DNA of 64,000 bases from Candidatus Uhrbacteria bacterium CG_4_9_14_3_um_filter_41_35. Lineage in GTDB: Bacteria; Patescibacteriota; Patescibacteriia; UBA9934. Shown piece after piece: positions 2,726 to 54,768 of the stretch (position 1 is its first letter; every line of letters begins with the position of its first letter). The position numbers and the translations under genes are program-made. The notes under the pieces were generated by a model. The model searched no databases, was not told where the DNA came from, and was given only the letters and a program-made list of their open reading frames with translations. The stretch covers positions 72,797-136,796 of the forward strand of contig PFWT01000009.1 of assembly GCA_002791275.1 (NCBI GenBank), in the 5' to 3' direction.

Positions 2726-4228
2726 ATGGAAATATTAGTTCAAAAAGGGGATATCTTAGAAGTTGCAACTGATTTATTAGTGGTCGGTGCTTATGAATCT
2801 GAGTTACTCCACGACCCGTTTACTGAAAGATTGAACGAACTTTTAGGTGGAAAAATGACAAAAATGGCCAAAGCTCAGGAATTTGAAGCAAAGCTTGGGC
2901 AAACCCTAATATTTGCGGCTCCAGACAAGATGGATATGGAGTATGTAATGGTCGTGGGTCTTGGTGAATTAAAATCCTCAGTTGTTGAAGCTGCCAGACT
3001 AGCCAGTGGTACTGCAGTACAGATGGCAAAAAAAATGGGCTTACGTAAAATCGCCATTGAATTTTTTGGTGAAGATCACGAGGAGTTTAGTGCTAAGAAC
3101 ACAGCAGAAGCTATGACTGAAGCTCTGCTTTTAGCAGACTACCAGTTTAACGTATACAAAAAACGTAAAGGCGTTTCGATTAAAGAAGTCATAATTGTAG
3201 CTGAAGATGGACGAGATGCTCGGAGTGCAGAAAAGGGGATTGAGAAGGGTCGAATTTGTGTAGACGGAACCACTGTGGCTCGAGATCTTGTAAACACACC
3301 TGGTCAGGATATGACACCAACCCGATTAGCTGAAGCCGCTGAAGAAATCTCTCGTATTTCAGGCGAGACGGTAAAGGTTGAGATTTTTGACCGCGCACAG
3401 GTTGAAAAAATGGGTATGGGTGCATATCTAGCAGTTGCGCAGGGAGCCGACAGCGAGCTGAAATTTATTCACCTCACCTACACACCAACAGTTGATTACA
3501 AAAAAACTGTGGCCGTAGTTGGGAAGGGTGTAACTTTTGACTCAGGCGGACTATCGCTCAAGCCTGGAAGCAGTATGGAAACAATGAAGTGTGATATGGC
3601 CGGCGCCGCTACAGTACTCGGACTTTTCACAGCGCTCGGTAGGTTACAACCAAAAGTAGCTGTCCACGGAATTATTGCTGCTTGCGAAAATATGCCATCT
3701 GGCCGAGCAATCAGACCTGGTGATATTGTAAAATCTGCCAACGGAAAAACTATCGAAATTCTGAATACCGATGCTGAGGGACGACTAACTTTGGCCGACG
3801 CTCTACATTACGCACAAAAATTTGAACCAGATTATTTAGTCGACCTGGCAACACTAACCGGAGCAATAGTTGTCGGACTTGGCGAGGAAATCGCTGGAGT
3901 ATTTTCAAACGATAACGTACTATCAAACAAGCTAGTTAAAGCTGGAGAGGAAACTGGCGAAGATATGTGTGCGCTACCACTTCACAGCGCTTACAAAAAG
4001 CTAATCCAATCAGAAGTAGCTGACATTCAAAATACCTCAACCTCACGTTATGGTGGTTCTATAACAGCTGCACTATTTTTATCGGAGTTCATTAACAGTA
4101 GTCAAAAATGGGCGCATATCGACATCGCAGGACCAGCTTTCGCAGAAAGACCGATGAATAGCTATACTGGGCTTGGCGGAACAGGTTTTGGAGTGCGAAC
4201 CTTAATTAGATGGATCGAGGAATTATAA
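2726..4228 (+). CDS. pepA: leucyl aminopeptidase, M17 family
   Basis: 500 aa. It carries the M17 signature NTDAEGRLTLADAL, plus GKGVTFDSGG and the metal-ligand region. Confidence 0.9.
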   Translation: MEILVQKGDILEVATDLLVVGAYESELLHDPFTERLNELLGGKMTKMAKAQEFEAKLGQTLIFAAPDKMDMEYVMVVGLGELKSSVVEAARLASGTAVQMAKKMGLRKIAIEFFGEDHEEFSAKNTAEAMTEALLLADYQFNVYKKRKGVSIKEVIIVAEDGRDARSAEKGIEKGRICVDGTTVARDLVNTPGQDMTPTRLAEAAEEISRISGETVKVEIFDRAQVEKMGMGAYLAVAQGADSELKFIHLTYTPTVDYKKTVAVVGKGVTFDSGGLSLKPGSSMETMKCDMAGAATVLGLFTALGRLQPKVAVHGIIAACENMPSGRAIRPGDIVKSANGKTIEILNTDAEGRLTLADALHYAQKFEPDYLVDLATLTGAIVVGLGEEIAGVFSNDNVLSNKLVKAGEETGEDMCALPLHSAYKKLIQSEVADIQNTSTSRYGGSITAALFLSEFINSSQKWAHIDIAGPAFAERPMNSYTGLGGTGFGVRTLIRWIEEL

Positions 4229-28083: not shown

Positions 28084-28989
28084 ATGGAACGGAGAAATTT
28101 TACAAAGACTGTTCACAGTAAAGAATATGAGCAGAAACGGTTTAAAAATCCGTTTTTTGAGAGTCAGGAAGAAAAGCAAAAAAAGTCTTTTAAGTTCTTG
28201 ATTATAGGTCTAGTTCTGATGCTCATCGCCGTCCCTATCATTCTCCTTTTCGGTGGGCTGTTTGAGCTCAAAAATAACTCTGTAAATGGCCTTACTACCA
28301 TTCCCCAGGCTGAGGTTGAAACAGAAATAAACCAGCATTTAGCCACAAAATGGCTGAACATCATTCCAAAGACTCATAAGTGGTTTACTCGTCCAAACGT
28401 GCTACGCGAAAGCTTGCAAAACAAATATAATTTTGAAAATATAAGCGTTAAAATTGAAGGCGATGAACTGAAGGTTGAAGTTGAGGAACGGATTTCTTCG
28501 CTTGCCTGGAAAAGTGCCGGTAATCTGTATTTTTTAGATCTCGACGGAAAGATTTTTAGAGAGATGTTACCTCAGGAACGGGCCAAAATCAATGAACGGC
28601 TAGGCGGAAAGATTGAACTAGTGGCACCCGAAGATATGCAAAGTGTGCCAATACTTCAACCAACACTGCCAATCATCCAGGATATGAGCGAACAGGTTGT
28701 TGAAATTGGGGGGGAGGTTATAAGTCCGGTCACCAGCGAGGCACTGATTAGTTTTGATAAAAACCTACGGTCTTTACATATTGATCCAGTTATTTATCAA
28801 GTTGAAAGACCACACAAACCCTGGCTTAGAGTGAAGACAAGGCAAGGGTACGACATACTCTTTGACGGGCTAGGGGATATGAATGTTCAGATAGCTTACC
28901 TGAACTCAATTTTGATTGAATACAAAGAAAAACTAAGCGAAATTAGCTATATCGACATTCGCTTTGAAAATCATATTTATATAAAGTAA
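28084..28989 (+). CDS. membrane-anchored protein with POTRA-like region (FtsQ/DivIB-like)
   Basis: 301 aa with a single N-terminal TM helix and a segment ISVKIEGDELKVEVEERISSLAWKSAGNLYFLDLDGKIF that resembles a POTRA domain. It sits next to alr. Weak call. Confidence 0.4.
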   Translation: MERRNFTKTVHSKEYEQKRFKNPFFESQEEKQKKSFKFLIIGLVLMLIAVPIILLFGGLFELKNNSVNGLTTIPQAEVETEINQHLATKWLNIIPKTHKWFTRPNVLRESLQNKYNFENISVKIEGDELKVEVEERISSLAWKSAGNLYFLDLDGKIFREMLPQERAKINERLGGKIELVAPEDMQSVPILQPTLPIIQDMSEQVVEIGGEVISPVTSEALISFDKNLRSLHIDPVIYQVERPHKPWLRVKTRQGYDILFDGLGDMNVQIAYLNSILIEYKEKLSEISYIDIRFENHIYIK

Positions 28990-29883
28990 TCGGGGATTCC
29001 CGTAGCAAAAATAATGCGTTAGAAAATTTATTCTAGATTTTACGACACTAGAATAATTGTTAGGTGCCAGTAAGGGGGAGTACTAACCTGTAAAGTTATT
29101 GTATGATCAAGATTCTGTATATTGGTGGTTGGTTTGTAATAAAAAAATTGCAAATTTCAGATATAAAATTTTCTACAAATAAATTCTTTTAATAAAATAA
29201 TGAGACAAAAAATTTATTTAATAAGTTGTGCGACACGATTCAACTTAATGATGATACTAAGGATAAGTTAAGAGCGTCGACTTGAAGCGAAAGAAACTTA
29301 ACTTGACGTTGTGGACTACTTAAAGAGAGTTAAGCAAAAAAATAATTCAACTCTAAGGCCAAGACAAAATCTAAAATAAATCCAAGGTACAAAGATACCT
29401 TATATCTTATACGACGCCACCAGTTTATTTAGGGGTGATAGGTAGTACCGCTTAAAATAAAACTAGAGAATAAAAAGTCTAAAAATTCTTAAAAAAGCCA
29501 ATAAAAACAGTAAAATCAAGCCAAGGTTCAGGACTGAAAATATTTTCCTACCTTATATATTTAATATAAAAAATGATGTCTAGAATCTGATACTTACAGT
29601 AAGTCAGAAAGCTTGAACCAAACCAACAATCAAAATACAGAATCTATTTTAAACTATCAGTATATAAATTATAGCACACCTCCCCACTTTATATTTATAT
29701 ATATGTATGTGTCGTAAAATAAAATATACCCCAAACACATTCTCCACCATCATTTAATTAACAAGAAACCTAATTAAGTATAAAAATATACTGATAATAT
29801 TTTTTTTCGCAGTCGTCACAAACTTTTCAGATCGAATACGAATGCTCAACCATCAAAACTTTACACCACCCCCCTGCTAAGAT

Positions 29884-29917
29884 AAAAAAATCCTGAATAA
29901 CAATTCAGGATTTTTTT
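29884..29917. terminator. perfect intrinsic terminator (A7, 9 bp stem, loop AACA, T7)
   Basis: The sequence is aaaaaaa, atcctgaat, aaca, attcaggat, ttttttt. It lies 3 nt beyond the stop of the minus-strand M23 peptidase gene. Confidence 0.65.
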
Positions 29918-29920
29918 ATC

Positions 29921-31114
29921 TTATTTCAAACCCGGTACATAGTTTCGCGGATCAACTGGAATACCGTTAAGTCTAACCTCAAAGTGAAGGTGTGGCCCGG
30001 TTGAGAAACCAGTTGAACCCACATAACCGATAATATCCCCTCTTGCCACGAACTGATCTTGCTTTACATTAAAGGCAGACATGTGCGCATATAAGGTGGA
30101 AAAACCACCCTCGTGAATTATGATCACATAATTACCATAATCCCGACCTCTCTTGGTCCAGGCTACCACTCCAGGCGCAGACGCTCGAATAGGCGTACCT
30201 GTCGGGGCTGCTAAGTCATGACCTGAGTGTTCGAAGAGATTTCTAAACGGATAGGTTGGATCGTGGAATATTGCGGTTGTAACCGCACTCGGCACCGGAT
30301 CTATGAACACTCCAGGATCGCCAAGATCGGCTGAATTATCTGAATTTCTAATCTTTGCCTCAATTTCCGCCTGCAGTTTTGAAATCTGTGTTGTAATATA
30401 TTGTTGCTCCTGGCGCAATTCACTCATCATTATCCTGTACTCTGCCTCACTGGATTGCGTTTCCGCAATCAGTGTATTCTTTGCCTCTTCATTAGCAGTG
30501 AGTGTGTTAATTTTTTGTTTAAGATCAGCCTCGAGTGAGACTAGACCATCTAAACGTTCCTGCCGGCCAGCCTTATTAGTTTCAAGCCCATCTTTTGCAG
30601 CTTTAGAGGTAGTTAGAGCCTTATTCAAACCCTTGTTCACACTTTCCAGGTTTTCAATTTCAGTAAACATCTGATTGAAATCCTGTGAGCTAAACAGCAC
30701 CTGCACCAAACCAATTTTATCACTCTTGTGTAGCTCGAACAACATTTCTTCAAGCATCGCTTTTTGGTTTTCAATGGTGGCTGTTTCTTCAGTAATTTGT
30801 TTGTCTATTTCTTCGATTTCTAGCTGTTGTTTTTTGATATTCGCTCGAGTTGCCTCAATGTCTAACTTAGCCAGCGCTGTTTGGTTTTCAATGAGTTCGA
30901 TGTCGTTTCGAAGATTAGCAGATTTAGAAGAAAGTTCCTGAATCTTCTTTTTGTATGTATCCATCTTTGAATTAATACTGTCTATCTCGGATTTTTTGTT
31001 TGAGATCTCACTATTTAAACTATCGACCTCAGCATTTTGAGCAAAAACTAAATGCCCGCCACTCATTGTGGTAGAGATAATAATAAGTAAGATGATGTAC
31101 AGTATTTTCCGCAT
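29921..31114 (-). CDS. secreted coiled-coil M23 (LytM-type) metallopeptidase, EnvC-like architecture
   Basis: 397 aa with a signal peptide, about 250 aa of coiled coil, and a C-terminal M23 domain that keeps HSGHDLAAPTGT and HLHFEV, the catalytic Zn ligands. Confidence 0.85.
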   Translation of the reverse strand: MRKILYIILLIIISTTMSGGHLVFAQNAEVDSLNSEISNKKSEIDSINSKMDTYKKKIQELSSKSANLRNDIELIENQTALAKLDIEATRANIKKQQLEIEEIDKQITEETATIENQKAMLEEMLFELHKSDKIGLVQVLFSSQDFNQMFTEIENLESVNKGLNKALTTSKAAKDGLETNKAGRQERLDGLVSLEADLKQKINTLTANEEAKNTLIAETQSSEAEYRIMMSELRQEQQYITTQISKLQAEIEAKIRNSDNSADLGDPGVFIDPVPSAVTTAIFHDPTYPFRNLFEHSGHDLAAPTGTPIRASAPGVVAWTKRGRDYGNYVIIIHEGGFSTLYAHMSAFNVKQDQFVARGDIIGYVGSTGFSTGPHLHFEVRLNGIPVDPRNYVPGLK

Positions 31115-37408: not shown

Positions 37409-37469
37409 AAAGTAATTGAACCTTTAAAACTACTCAAAGATTAACCGATTACGCTAGTCTTGACAACAA

Positions 37470-37757
37470 CTACTCGTTAGCTGCGTCCTTCTCGTTCTTT
37501 TTTGATAATTTTACAAACAGTGACGCCACTAAAACAACAAGAAAAGTCATCGAAACCGCATAAACTAACTGTGCTTTAATTCCATCGGTCTCAAGTGGCC
37601 AGATACTTTGAATGATTGCCTTAATTGCGTCGTTCCAAGCTAGACCAGCTACCAGTCCAAAGGCAGTCAGTAAATAACCCGTTACCTTTTCCCAAACTTT
37701 GCCCGCAAACTGCTCCGCCTCCACCTTGGCTTCGTTAATATGTTTTGAAATTACCAT
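37470..37757 (-). CDS. hypothetical small membrane protein
   Basis: 95 aa with two predicted helices. Confidence 0.4.
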   Translation of the reverse strand: MVISKHINEAKVEAEQFAGKVWEKVTGYLLTAFGLVAGLAWNDAIKAIIQSIWPLETDGIKAQLVYAVSMTFLVVLVASLFVKLSKKNEKDAANE

Positions 37758-37830
37758 AGTTTTACATACCCCTTTTCGGGCGAATAAGAATATTCAATTA
37801 GTAAAATCATCTTACGACATTTTACAGAAT

Positions 37831-37859
37831 TTGTAACGCTTTAATTTACAGGATAAAAT
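37831..37859 (+). promoter_or_regulatory. sigma70-like promoter (TTGTAA-17-TAAAAT) 6 nt upstream of the GIY-YIG gene ATG
   Basis: The -35 is at 37831-37836 and the -10 at 37854-37859, with the ATG at 37866. There is no SD, so the mRNA is predicted leaderless. Confidence 0.4.
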
Positions 37860-37865
37860 TGATAA

Positions 37866-38126
37866 ATGAAACACTTCGTTTATCTTGCCCGATGCAAAGA
37901 CAATTCCCTTTACACTGGGACCTGTGTTGATATTCAGGCCCGTGAGGATAAACACAACGCCGGAACAGGGGCAAAGTATACTCGAGCAAAGCGACCGGTG
38001 AAGATTATTTATTTTGAAGAGTTTAAAACACTGTCTGACGCACGAAAACGAGAGGCGGAGATAAAGAAATGGTCAAAGAGTAAGAAAGAGGAACTGATTT
38101 TAAAAATAAAAAAGCCCCGATCCTAA
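37866..38126 (+). CDS. GIY-YIG nuclease-superfamily protein (UPF0213/YhbQ-type)
   Basis: 86 aa with YLARCKDNSLYTGTCVDIQAREDKHN-GTGAKYTRAKRPVKIIYFEEF. This is the GIY-YIG motif pair with the conserved Arg and Glu. Confidence 0.85.
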   Translation: MKHFVYLARCKDNSLYTGTCVDIQAREDKHNAGTGAKYTRAKRPVKIIYFEEFKTLSDARKREAEIKKWSKSKKEELILKIKKPRS

Positions 38127-38158
38127 GATGCGGGGCTTTGCTCACTCGACAGAGTGAG

Positions 38159-50237: not shown

Positions 50238-50324
50238 GCGGATATAATACGTCAGTTATCCCTTTCTATCAAGTAATTTATTGACTATTTAACCGAATCC
50301 GATACTATAAATAAGGGGTGTGGA

Positions 50325-50603
50325 ATGAAGTACTCAAGCCTTGAAGACACAATTAGAGAATTTCGTGTCCTGGTGTATTTAATGTATGTTGTTGCAACAC
50401 TGTTTATTACTGCCTATCTACTTAGCTCGTTTCATAAACATGAGGCACAGCCGATCTTCTACCTATTTCCTGGACTCGTGTTCCTGATAATTAGCCATTA
50501 TTTTGCAACCCAGTATTTTACCAAGGATCACGCATACAGGCTGACAACACTCACCTGCTATACTACCTTCTTGATGATTGTAGCAATTGCAGTCATTTTC
50601 TAA
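50325..50603 (+). CDS. hypothetical small membrane protein
   Basis: 92 aa with three hydrophobic helices. No family recognised. Confidence 0.3.
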   Translation: MKYSSLEDTIREFRVLVYLMYVVATLFITAYLLSSFHKHEAQPIFYLFPGLVFLIISHYFATQYFTKDHAYRLTTLTCYTTFLMIVAIAVIF

Positions 50604-50630
50604 CCCAGCTACGCTGTGGTTTTTTTGTAC

Positions 50631-50660
50631 AAAAAAAATCCCCTTTTGGGGATTTTTTTT
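50631..50660. terminator. bidirectional intrinsic terminator (A-run, 10 bp stem, T-run)
   Basis: The stem aaaaatcccc pairs with ggggattttt across a tttt loop. It lies between the 50325 gene (+) and rpsI (-). Confidence 0.6.
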
Positions 50661-50664
50661 GAAT

Positions 50665-54161: not shown

Positions 54162-54191
54162 AATATATAATTATTTGCAAACAAAGCTAAT

Positions 54192-54305
54192 TTAGCCCTG
54201 TCGCTGTTTATGCTTTGGGGTCTTACAAATAACATGAACTCGTCCTTTTCGACGGATTACATGACAGTCTCTACATATCTTTTTTGCTGACGATCTTACT
54301 TTCAT
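54192..54305 (-). CDS. rpmJ: 50S ribosomal protein L36
   Basis: Not in the ORF track because it is 37 aa. The reverse frame from ATG 54305 to TAA 54192 encodes [37 protein letters not shown], the L36 zinc-ribbon signature, between infA and rpsM as is canonical. Confidence 0.9.
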
Positions 54306-54373
54306 AATATCTATTTTTATCAGAAAATCACCCAAAATTAGCGGTGATCTTCAACTAAGGTCGACATATCGTA

Positions 54374-54589
54374 TTAAAATCTATACGTGATGCGTCCTTT
54401 TGTGAGATCATAAGGGCTGATCTCAACTTTGACTTCATCTCCTGACATTATACGGATGCGAAATTTGCGCAACCGGCCGGAAAGATGAGCGATTAATTCC
54501 TGATCGTTCTCAAGTTGAACGCGGAAATTGCCACCGGGAAGTGACTCTTCCACAGTGCCTCGCATTTCTATAAAATCTTTTTCTGCCAT
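54374..54589 (-). CDS. infA: translation initiation factor IF-1
   Basis: 71 aa S1-like OB fold with near-consensus IF-1 sequence. Confidence 0.95.
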
Positions 54590-54599
54590 AAGCTGATGA

Positions 54600-54628
54600 A
54601 AGTATATACTAACTTACAATTTTTGGCA
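54600..54628 (-). promoter_or_regulatory. sigma70-like promoter of the infA-rpmJ-rpsM... cluster (TTGCCA-17-TATACT, minus strand)
   Basis: On the minus strand the -35 is the complement of 54623-54628 and the -10 the complement of 54600-54605. The -10 ends 10 nt before the infA ATG, and there is no SD. Confidence 0.4.
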
Positions 54629-54735
54629 AGAAGTAGTCAGATTTCAATGCTTTGAGATCTTACTAGACAGACCAAATATTGTCAAGAATATGTGAGTATT
54701 AACAACTTAATTAGTTATAATTAGCCAGCGCACTG

Positions 54736-54763
54736 AAAAACTACATAAAAAATGTAGTTTTTT
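54736..54763. terminator. bidirectional intrinsic terminator downstream of alaS
   Basis: It reads A5, then a ctacat stem, aaaaa loop and atgtag stem, then T6. Confidence 0.5.
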
Positions 54764-54768
54764 GTTGT

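Follow-up and report, generated by a model that had tools for sequence, protein, structure and literature searches.

A long gap without genes between convergent genes

The DNA described here is a window of 64,000 nucleotides (nt), or 64 kilobases (kb), from Candidatus Uhrbacteria bacterium CG_4_9_14_3_um_filter_41_35 (contig PFWT01000009.1), one of the Patescibacteria. Within it, an intergenic gap at 28990-29920 separates the 3′ ends of two convergent genes and is probably a chromosome terminus region of the kind in which related bacteria keep dif, the site at which Xer recombinases resolve chromosome dimers. The gap is bordered on the left by an FtsQ-like gene (28084-28989, plus strand), which has no Pfam match and adjoins an alanine racemase gene in relatives, and on the right by the gene of an M23 peptidase (29921-31114, minus strand).

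An earlier note on this DNA had called attention to a gap of some 930 base pairs (bp) between convergent genes that is rich in AT, holds no open reading frame (ORF) of 60 amino acids (aa) or more and ends in a perfect terminator, and all of this holds. The distance between the ORF ends at 28989 (+) and 29921 (-) is 931 nt, the longest ORF in any frame of the gap has 37 aa, and no other part of the window is free of ORFs of at least 60 aa over such a length (the runner-up measures 265 nt). With 29.5% GC, the gap lies below the 40.4% median of equally long windows; only 0.2% of these are lower, and the gap is the most AT-rich 931 nt in the 64 kb. Six contigs, each from a different metagenome sample (JGI, ENA), have exactly this sequence, so an assembly artefact is unlikely. 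Elsewhere in the window, stretches of 430-750 nt without an ORF of at least 80-100 aa are found at 54162-54768, 37409-38158 and 50238-50664.

The right-hand end of the gap is an ordinary bidirectional intrinsic terminator for the M23 gene (29878-29923). An A-run and a T-run enclose a perfect 21-nt inverted repeat (arms 29878-29898 and 29903-29923). The element, which sits at the 3′ end of the M23 gene and overlaps its stop codon, folds with z = -7.7 on the plus strand and -6.8 on the minus strand relative to shuffled sequences, and is kept in the closest relative. At the opposite end, a short CGGGGATTCCCG hairpin (28991-29002) directly follows the FtsQ-like stop codon; the earlier note had recognized it, as cggg-gatt-cccg, but had placed it at 29011. 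No T-run comes after this hairpin on the plus strand, and the FtsQ-like gene thus has no obvious intrinsic terminator of its own.

The interior of the gap contains the other short repeats that had been described, namely: two copies of a CCAAGGT...ACCTTATAT motif, with stems at 29384-29401 and 29523-29554; AGTTAAG/CTTAAC words; and a GTCGAC palindrome. A repeated TACGAC word is present as well, about 20 nt from where one of its copies had been located (29041-29046 rather than 29061). A third TACGAC copy, on the reverse strand at 29711-29716, had been missed, as had an inverted dif arm, TTGTGCGACAC, at 29226-29236 and a 12-nt inverted repeat, ATTTTACGACAC/GTGTCGTAAAAT, whose arms are separated by 660 nt.

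A dif-type site occupies the same gap in relatives

Three other homologues of the FtsQ-like protein were found in an index of 5.8 billion proteins, a protein through which the relatives L007 and L008 were reached, and two scans of metagenome contigs returned no closer relatives from a collection that also failed to return the window's own sequence. In the closest relative (L007), the flanking proteins are 87-93% identical to those of the window, and a gap of 1066 nt lies at the same place. When the two gaps are aligned, islands that match at 87% stand out from surroundings that match at 45% and contain many indels; there are exact runs of 30, 29, 16, 16, 16 and 15 nt. Unconstrained DNA of 45% identity would not be expected to give runs of this length. 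The earlier view that the gap is more than a passive spacer is thus borne out.

A more distant relative (L008; FtsQ-like protein 34-35% and M23 peptidase 53% identical) has a gap of only 297 nt and retains a single island, which is a clean palindrome, GTGTCGTACAA TATATC TTATACGACAC. Its counterpart in L007 is GCGTCGCACAA TATATC TTATACGACGC. dif consists of two arms of about 11 bp with partial dyad symmetry around a short centre, and criteria for its prediction have been published (PMC5357621, PMC3025954). The palindromes of L007 and L008 share this architecture, with 11-bp arms, a 6-bp A/T-rich centre and the inner bases ..ACAA and TTAT... Known consensus sequences did not expose the site, which came to light through the comparison with L007 and L008: the dif sequences of Escherichia coli and Bacillus subtilis matched the window with 9-10 mismatches in 28 positions at best, and the best matches of E. 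coli dif, B. subtilis dif, difSL and difH had 9-11 mismatches and were scattered over the window.

A scan for the pattern GTCGNAYAA-N6-TTATACGAC, run on one genome per prokaryotic species and making no use of synteny, returned at least 120 loci; by our estimate, chance alone would yield a few dozen in a collection of that size. Among the matches listed, Patescibacteria dominate, no Patescibacterial genome occurs twice, and the consensus is RY-GTCGCACAA-TATATC-TTATACGAC-RY, i.e. 28 bp in an 11-6-11 arrangement. Matches outside the phylum include archaea (marine group II among them), with xerA-like genes beside the site, and some Paenibacillaceae. Fifty-five Patescibacterial loci from the scan, together with L007 and L008, form a set of 57 loci, all of which have a contiguous core. 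Sites of this type are also present in the Saccharibacteria loci L020, L043 and L121.

In at least 17 of the scan loci, as in L007 and L008, the site lies within the same FtsQ-like/M23 gap and is thus conserved at the orthologous position. The gene order around it is seryl-tRNA synthetase (SerRS)-alanine racemase (AlaRac)-FtsQ-like, converging upon M23-glutamyl-tRNA synthetase (GluRS), with AlaRac/SerRS and GluRS alongside in most of these 19 loci. Their gaps, mostly of 300-1070 nt with a few of 2.7-3.4 kb, are without any gene. A full-text literature search found no description of a dif site in Patescibacteria, and no candidate-phyla lineage is among those listed in the available part of the 2011 dif survey (PMC3025954). 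As far as could be found, a dif kept phylum-wide by Patescibacteria in one syntenic gap had not been described before.

Relatives of the flanking genes (SerRS, AlaRac, FtsQ-like, M23 and GluRS) are found together with the Patescibacterial dif in at least 15 metagenome-assembled genomes (MAGs) that are labelled 'uncultured Gammaproteobacteria bacterium' (L011, L013, L026, L033, L044, L050, L052, L059, L081, L082, L095, L096, L111, L114 and L128). The proteins are 40-69% identical to those of the window, and L044, L081 and L111 have the whole block. The taxonomic labels of these MAGs look wrong.

The gap as a probable terminus-type region

Genes point toward the gap from both sides: 22 of the 25 genes to its left in the window are on the plus strand, and 21 of the 26 to its right are on the minus strand. 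The same arrangement is seen across the 57 Patescibacterial loci, where 307 of 336 ORFs of at least 150 aa (91%) point toward the site, which is never inside a long ORF. The cumulative GC skew also reaches its maximum at the gap. We rejected this skew as proof of a terminus since, after regression, it is mostly a coding-strand effect, and the terminus call rests for that reason mainly on gene orientation and homology to the dif locus.

Taken together, the sequence comparisons suggest, with a probability of roughly 0.8, that the gap is a gene-convergence, terminus-type region at which relatives keep the Xer/dif locus for chromosome dimer resolution. Several observations weigh against this. In the regression just mentioned, the effect of side was 0.025 ± 0.014, against 0.061 ± 0.014 for that of strand, and the GC3 skew was not significant. 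Moreover, no xer gene lies within the window, and the conserved islands 3, 4, 5a and 5c, described below, are not accounted for. As a strict member of the dif family the window itself falls short: a full dif-type site is absent from the 64 kb even if 3 mismatches or spacers of 3-15 nt are allowed.

The low GC content of the gap and its repeated short motifs could instead be those of a replication origin. This is barely conceivable, however, as no DnaA box occurs in the gap even with 1 mismatch (the count for the window is 16, with 15.6 expected by chance), the bordering genes converge rather than diverge, the cumulative GC skew has a maximum here and not a minimum, and relatives carry dif at this place.

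Xer genes at and away from the site

Two members of a Falkowbacteria-like clade (L009 and L168) possess a 314-aa Xer gene (945 nt) that fills the same FtsQ-like/M23 gap. An 11-6-11 site, ACTGAGTGTAA GGGATA TTATACTCAGT, is located 35-40 nt upstream of xer and differs in its outer arm bases; site and gene are at 3109-3136 and 3175-4119 in L009, and at 3947-3974 and 4001-4945 in L168. The L168 module lies at 440-449 kb of a contig of 881,714 nt, i.e. at the contig midpoint. This Xer family is widespread and strongly conserved in the phylum: 4435 proteins match it at E ≤ 1e-30, and identities in the best 120 clusters are 71% or higher; none of these best 120 clusters could be linked to the window's organism. 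In the Uhrbacteria-like genomes, including the window, there is no xer gene near the site.

The presence of xer in this gap in L009 and L168, at a length of 945 nt compared to 931 nt for the gap, raises the question of whether the gap is a decayed protein gene, with xer as the candidate; a pseudogene had also been named as an alternative in the earlier note. The searches gave it no support. In tblastn, the L009-type Xer matched the window gap at E = 25 and the L007 gap at E = 71, both of which are noise, and two small syntenic ORFs likewise gave only noise against the gap. No frame exceeds 37 codons, and a geneless gap is found at 19 other Patescibacterial loci. We therefore regard a decayed gene as extremely improbable.

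In one Uhrbacteria-like clade (L093, L078, L092 and L038), the 60 nt to the left of dif seem to contain a short conserved open frame that stops within a few bases of the site. By our own translation it encodes roughly MGAILLLSLYLTNVFG, a hydrophobic peptide, and L007 may keep a remnant of its 3′ end.

The dif core looks split in the window

What the window keeps of dif is TATATC, the centre (29401-29406), followed directly on the plus strand by TTATACGACGC, the right arm (29407-29417); the two span 29401-29417. From the first base of the centre (29401) onward, 30 nt are identical in L007; the 12 nt to the left of this run match at 2 positions only. The contiguous core of about 28 bp that is present in the relatives is thus lacking. 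An exact copy of the canonical left arm, the 11-mer GTGTCGCACAA, occurs once in the 64 kb, at 29226-29236 on the minus strand; it stands 164 nt to the left of the centre and is inverted relative to it. L007 has no such isolated left arm.

Re-inverting the segment 29226-29400 restores the canonical 28-mer GTGTCGCACAA TATATC TTATACGACGC. Most simply, a 175-bp inversion with one breakpoint at the junction of arm and centre, which is where a tyrosine recombinase cuts, may have split the dif core. From the sequence we rate the chances of such an event as about even, because three points tell against it. The left flank of L007, in local alignment with 29238-29400, gives a z of about 0 in both orientations, the segment being too diverged; isolated arm-type half-sites also occur near an intact dif in about nine other genomes; and an inversion of this kind would give junction spacers of 1 and 14 nt, unlike the product of a canonical Xer exchange. 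If the core was indeed split in this way, canonical recombination at this locus has probably been lost.

The place of the missing left arm is taken by the first copy of the CCAAGGT motif, a hairpin of the form AAGGTA-CAAAGA-TACCTT (29384-29401, plus strand) that abuts the dif centre; the sequence upstream of this hairpin is a loose duplicate of that preceding island 4. The second copy, an imperfect AAGGT...ACCTT hairpin (29523-29554, plus strand), is absent from L007. On the other side, the right flank of dif is conserved (29418-29449, plus strand) and ends in GATAGGTAGTACC (29437-29449); a looser GGT..AGTAC element stands about equally far from the right arm in L008, L044, L052, L089 and L095. 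The L007 gap has four or five direct copies of TAGGTAGTA(G/C) (1995-2044, 2232-2247 and 2365-2380), one of which is the conserved GATAGGTAGTACC beside dif; the window has that copy alone.

Solitary half-sites beside dif

The 12-mer ATTTTACGACAC occurs exactly twice in the window, both times inside the gap. Half-site A (29037-29048, plus strand) and its inverted partner, half-site C (29709-29720, minus strand), both read toward the dif centre and have 660 nt between them. ATTTTACGACAC differs by a single base from the dif arm TTATACGACAC, of which it is a T-variant. The same pair is found in L007, with 664 nt between its members, and the 16-nt run at 29035-29050 around half-site A is identical there. 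Half-site A occupies the 11-nt loop of a 9-bp palindrome, TTATTCTAG/CTAGAATAA (29028-29056), inside conserved island 1 (29021-29053). Neither half-site has a partner arm at recombination spacing. In this arm-relatedness, as well as in their confinement to the terminus gap and their conservation in L007, they resemble the XerD-binding sites (XDS) of the B. subtilis terminus.

In the 57 Patescibacterial loci, the 9-mer TTTTACGAC has 44 copies within 1 kb of dif, compared to 3 in the other 322 kb, and no other 9-mer of the form NNNN[A/G]CGAC approaches this enrichment. The raw figure is overstated because long open frames contain 18 of the 44 copies, of which at least 7 fall where a conserved part of the FtsQ-like gene codes for F-Y-D. 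The 26 copies outside long open frames are distributed over 18 of the 57 loci, at distances of about 75-950 nt from dif; by our own estimate, less than one would be expected by chance.

Inside the FtsQ-like frame, a DnaA-box-like word, TGTGGATAA (TGTGGAAAA in L050), precedes TTTTACGAC by 13-14 nt, and the encoded peptide reads W-I..F-Y-D. Words of this type occur in L026, L050, L059, L070, L079, L096 and L112, and represent protein-level conservation that inflates the raw half-site count.

Since the half-sites share a TACGAC[A/G]C core with the dif arms and have no partner arm, we infer that they may bind an Xer monomer without recombining. Two points speak against this. The shared core is the whole basis for assuming Xer binding, and the polarity of the half-sites varies, with 16 of the 26 copies directed toward dif and 10 away from it. 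On the latter ground we rejected half-site polarity as support for a KOPS-like (FtsK-orienting polar sequence) or fork-trap reading.

Converging half-sites could nevertheless act as polar barriers to replication forks, i.e. as a Ter-like fork trap bound by Xer or by another protein. dif stands between inverted sites in the window, L007, L060 and L064, and apparently in L095, the region lies at the strand-switch point, and the B. subtilis terminus was itself first recognized as a pair of imperfect inverted repeats (IRI/IRII). A trap, however, needs a fixed polarity, and here the sites change direction from genome to genome, relative both to dif and to the neighbouring genes; many loci have one site or none, and the shared TACGAC core suggests Xer rather than a dedicated terminator protein. 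Such barriers are accordingly very unlikely.

Half-sites A and C share their axis with a longer inverted repeat of 27 nt (left copy 29110-29136, right copy 29619-29645; 24 of 27 positions match). We rejected this long repeat as a conserved structure, as L007 has only the 12-nt core and the 27-nt part is specific to the window. Together, the exact 12-nt and the imperfect 27-nt repeats flank about 480-660 nt around one axis, as might the remnant of a mobile element: either a miniature inverted-repeat transposable element (MITE) bounded by 29037-29136 and 29619-29720, or a miniature integrative mobile element that exploits Xer (IMEX) and had integrated at dif, with degenerate half-sites as its trace. 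Integration of an IMEX leaves extra dif-like sites or half-sites beside dif (PMC5357621), and in the present set tandem second sites with 12-nt spacers are found in L038 and L078, second left arms in L048 and L092, and Patescibacterial-type dif-like sites in some viral contigs (L166 and L161).

A mobile remnant is still unlikely in our view. Neither the repeats nor the islands have another copy in the 64 kb, so that the locus does not qualify as a MITE or insertion sequence, and the 27-nt repeat is not conserved even in L007. One specific 12-nt half-site, by contrast, is kept at a locus where the FtsQ-like proteins are only 22-34% identical. Retention of a specific sequence in distant genomes is unlike a decaying integration scar, and the half-sites do not behave as hybrid att sites because no partner arm is recognizable. 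Of the decayed insertion that the earlier note had considered, a local rearrangement of the dif core thus stands, while there is no sign of an inserted element.

Lineage-specific islands and the case for an RNA gene

The remaining islands, all given on the plus strand, lie to the right of dif. Island 3, AAAAAAGCCAATAAAA (29491-29506), is common only to the window and L007. Island 4, TACCTTATATATTTAATATAAAAAATGAT (29549-29577), is the 29-nt exact run with L007; it contains the palindrome TTATAT-ATTTA-ATATAA and is lineage-specific. Island 5a, CACCTCCCCAC (29677-29687), mirrors a GGGGGAG run at 29075-29081 on the left side, and island 5b/c, GTATGTGTCGTAAAATAAAATATACCCCAAAC (29705-29736), holds half-site C. 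Island 3, island 4, CACCTCCCCAC with its mirror GGGGGAG, AAATATACCCCAAAC (29722-29736) and GATAGGTAGTACC were not found beyond L007.

The earlier note had favoured one or more non-coding RNA genes, and the islands could in principle be the promoter, RNA-body and terminator pieces of unannotated small or structured RNA genes. Those at 29491-29506, 29549-29577 and 29677-29736 are conserved with L007 and have no assigned role. In addition, GTCGTAAAAT has a -10-like TAAAAT, the terminator at 29878-29923 could end a transcript of about 200 nt that starts after 29720, and one fold tile (29140-29289, minus strand) has z = -2.5. The searches, however, did not bear the proposal out. No Rfam family reaches the gathering threshold in the window, and at E ≤ 10 the gap yields terminator look-alikes only; ARAGORN finds no transfer RNA or transfer-messenger RNA. 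Of 14 fold tiles of 150 nt, 13 are within noise, the terminator is the sole strong signal, and outside the terminator tiles z ranges from -2.5 to +1.7 over both strands. Sigma-70-like promoter sites number 7, compared to 5.9 ± 2.6 expected from shuffles, in a scan that missed the obvious terminator.

Conservation points the same way. Two gap sequences (window and L007) can be aligned, and no RNA body is conserved between them because the sequence between the islands is 45% identical with many indels. What the syntenic gaps carry, and what is conserved beyond the genus, is a DNA recombination site of the dif family and not an RNA. An RNA gene is thus quite unlikely. On sequence grounds, the gap is best described as a known kind of DNA element, a terminus/dif region with a terminator, in an unusual split state.

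Relation to known Xer systems and possible function

The site of the relatives resembles the bacterial dif/XerCD system (E. coli; CodV/RipX in B. subtilis) in its 28-bp length, its 11-bp arms and its 6-bp A/T-rich centre, which is TATATC as opposed to TGTATA or TATATA. The inner ..AYAA and TTAT.. bases are also alike, as is the non-coding position at a switch of gene orientation and skew (PMC5357621, PMC3025954). It differs in the arm sequences and in that the Patescibacterial arms are almost perfectly palindromic; in the window, furthermore, the arms are not contiguous. Near-palindromic arms are shared with the single-recombinase modules XerS/difSL, XerH/difH and archaeal XerA/dif, as is the proximity of xer to the site in the Falkowbacteria-like clade (35-40 nt), and archaeal sites beside xerA-like genes match the same search pattern. 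Unlike these modules, the Uhrbacteria-like genomes have no xer near the site, and the centre measures 6 bp rather than the 11 bp of difSL.

For the half-sites, the closest comparison is with the XDS. XerD bound at XDS in the B. subtilis terminus unloads Smc-ScpAB, a complex of the SMC (structural maintenance of chromosomes) type (Karaboja et al. 2021, as reported in PMC10945525 and PMC11894783). As with the XDS, we find in the terminus region solitary, conserved, arm-related sites that have no partner arm and are not recombination substrates. The half-sites differ in being a specific variant, TTTTACGAC, of the arm TTATACGAC, and in lying within about 75-950 nt of dif, whereas XDS reportedly spread over a larger terminus region.

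Two further systems offer partial parallels. In the archaeon Thermococcus kodakarensis, an intergenic region of about 1.9 kb around dif forms an SMC-dependent boundary even without dif (PMC11840125). Like the gap in the window (0.93 kb), this region is unusually long and separates convergent genes; it differs in sequence and in its dependence on TrmBL2, and of the two only the archaeal region is known for a boundary function. IMEX scars and the pdif modules of Acinetobacter resemble the present locus in their clustered Xer-type sites and in rearrangements that end at an Xer site (PMC5357621, PMC12907356). The locus in the window is unlike them in having no cargo and no complete hybrid sites, and its half-sites are conserved across distant genomes.

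What is new beyond this known picture is the recurrence of a specific solitary half-site beside dif, and the existence of a natural strain in which the core is split and the half-sites are conserved. Both half-sites and the orphaned right arm could still bind Xer monomers without recombining. Such binding would resemble that at the SMC-unloading XDS, and would explain continued selection on the half-sites. We tentatively propose that the terminus gaps of Patescibacteria might be small nucleoprotein platforms rather than a bare dif, in which ATTTTACGACAC half-sites recruit Xer for a non-recombinational task such as SMC unloading or stalling, or organization of the terminus, and that the window strain would be a natural separation-of-function case. 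This is possible, although the odds seem to us to lean the other way. If true, destruction of the core by an inversion at the point of Xer cleavage, alongside perfect conservation of the half-sites and the orphan right arm would mean that the non-recombinational role is under the stronger selection in an ultra-small genome.

Hardly any Patescibacteria (the candidate phyla radiation) have been cultivated, and what is said about their chromosome biology comes from sequence alone. A 28-bp site that recurs phylum-wide in one fixed gap would provide a terminus marker for the finishing of MAGs, would support growth-rate estimates based on origin-to-terminus ratios and would help to recognize MAGs that are mis-binned or mislabelled. 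The recurrence of solitary half-sites suggests that the Firmicutes may not be alone in an XDS-like use of Xer, and a split dif in a clonal, widely recovered population raises the question of whether genomes of about 1 Mb still need dimer resolution.

Other arrangements of dif-type sites

Further arrangements were seen among the scan loci. In L038 (~20-130), L078 (2405-2520), L092 (462-560) and L048 (7270-7345), the dif right arm forms one half of a long, near-perfect hairpin of up to 23 bp, the other half of which recreates the left arm. In L038 and L078, a second dif-like site with a 12-nt spacer, ending in TTTTACGAC, comes after this hairpin. Tandem or secondary Xer sites could account for such arrangements, as could scars of IMEX.

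Among the Paenibacillaceae, two identical dif-like sites occur in inverted orientation about 1.1 kb apart: L063 (564-587 + and 1720-1743 -), L100 (1188 + and 2334 -), L051 (1853 + and 3014 -) and L104 (980 - and 2087 +). In L063 and L100, the paired sites flank an xer-like recombinase gene. Such an arrangement is less suggestive of the chromosomal dif than of an Xer cassette that can invert or move.

Finally, 38 viral contigs of IMG/VR match the dif pattern (among them L166, L161, L130, L132, L136, L150 and L154), and a few of these have centres of the Patescibacterial type (tatatc or tatacc). They could be attachment sites of phages or IMEX that mimic the dif of the host, or host DNA that has been misclassified.

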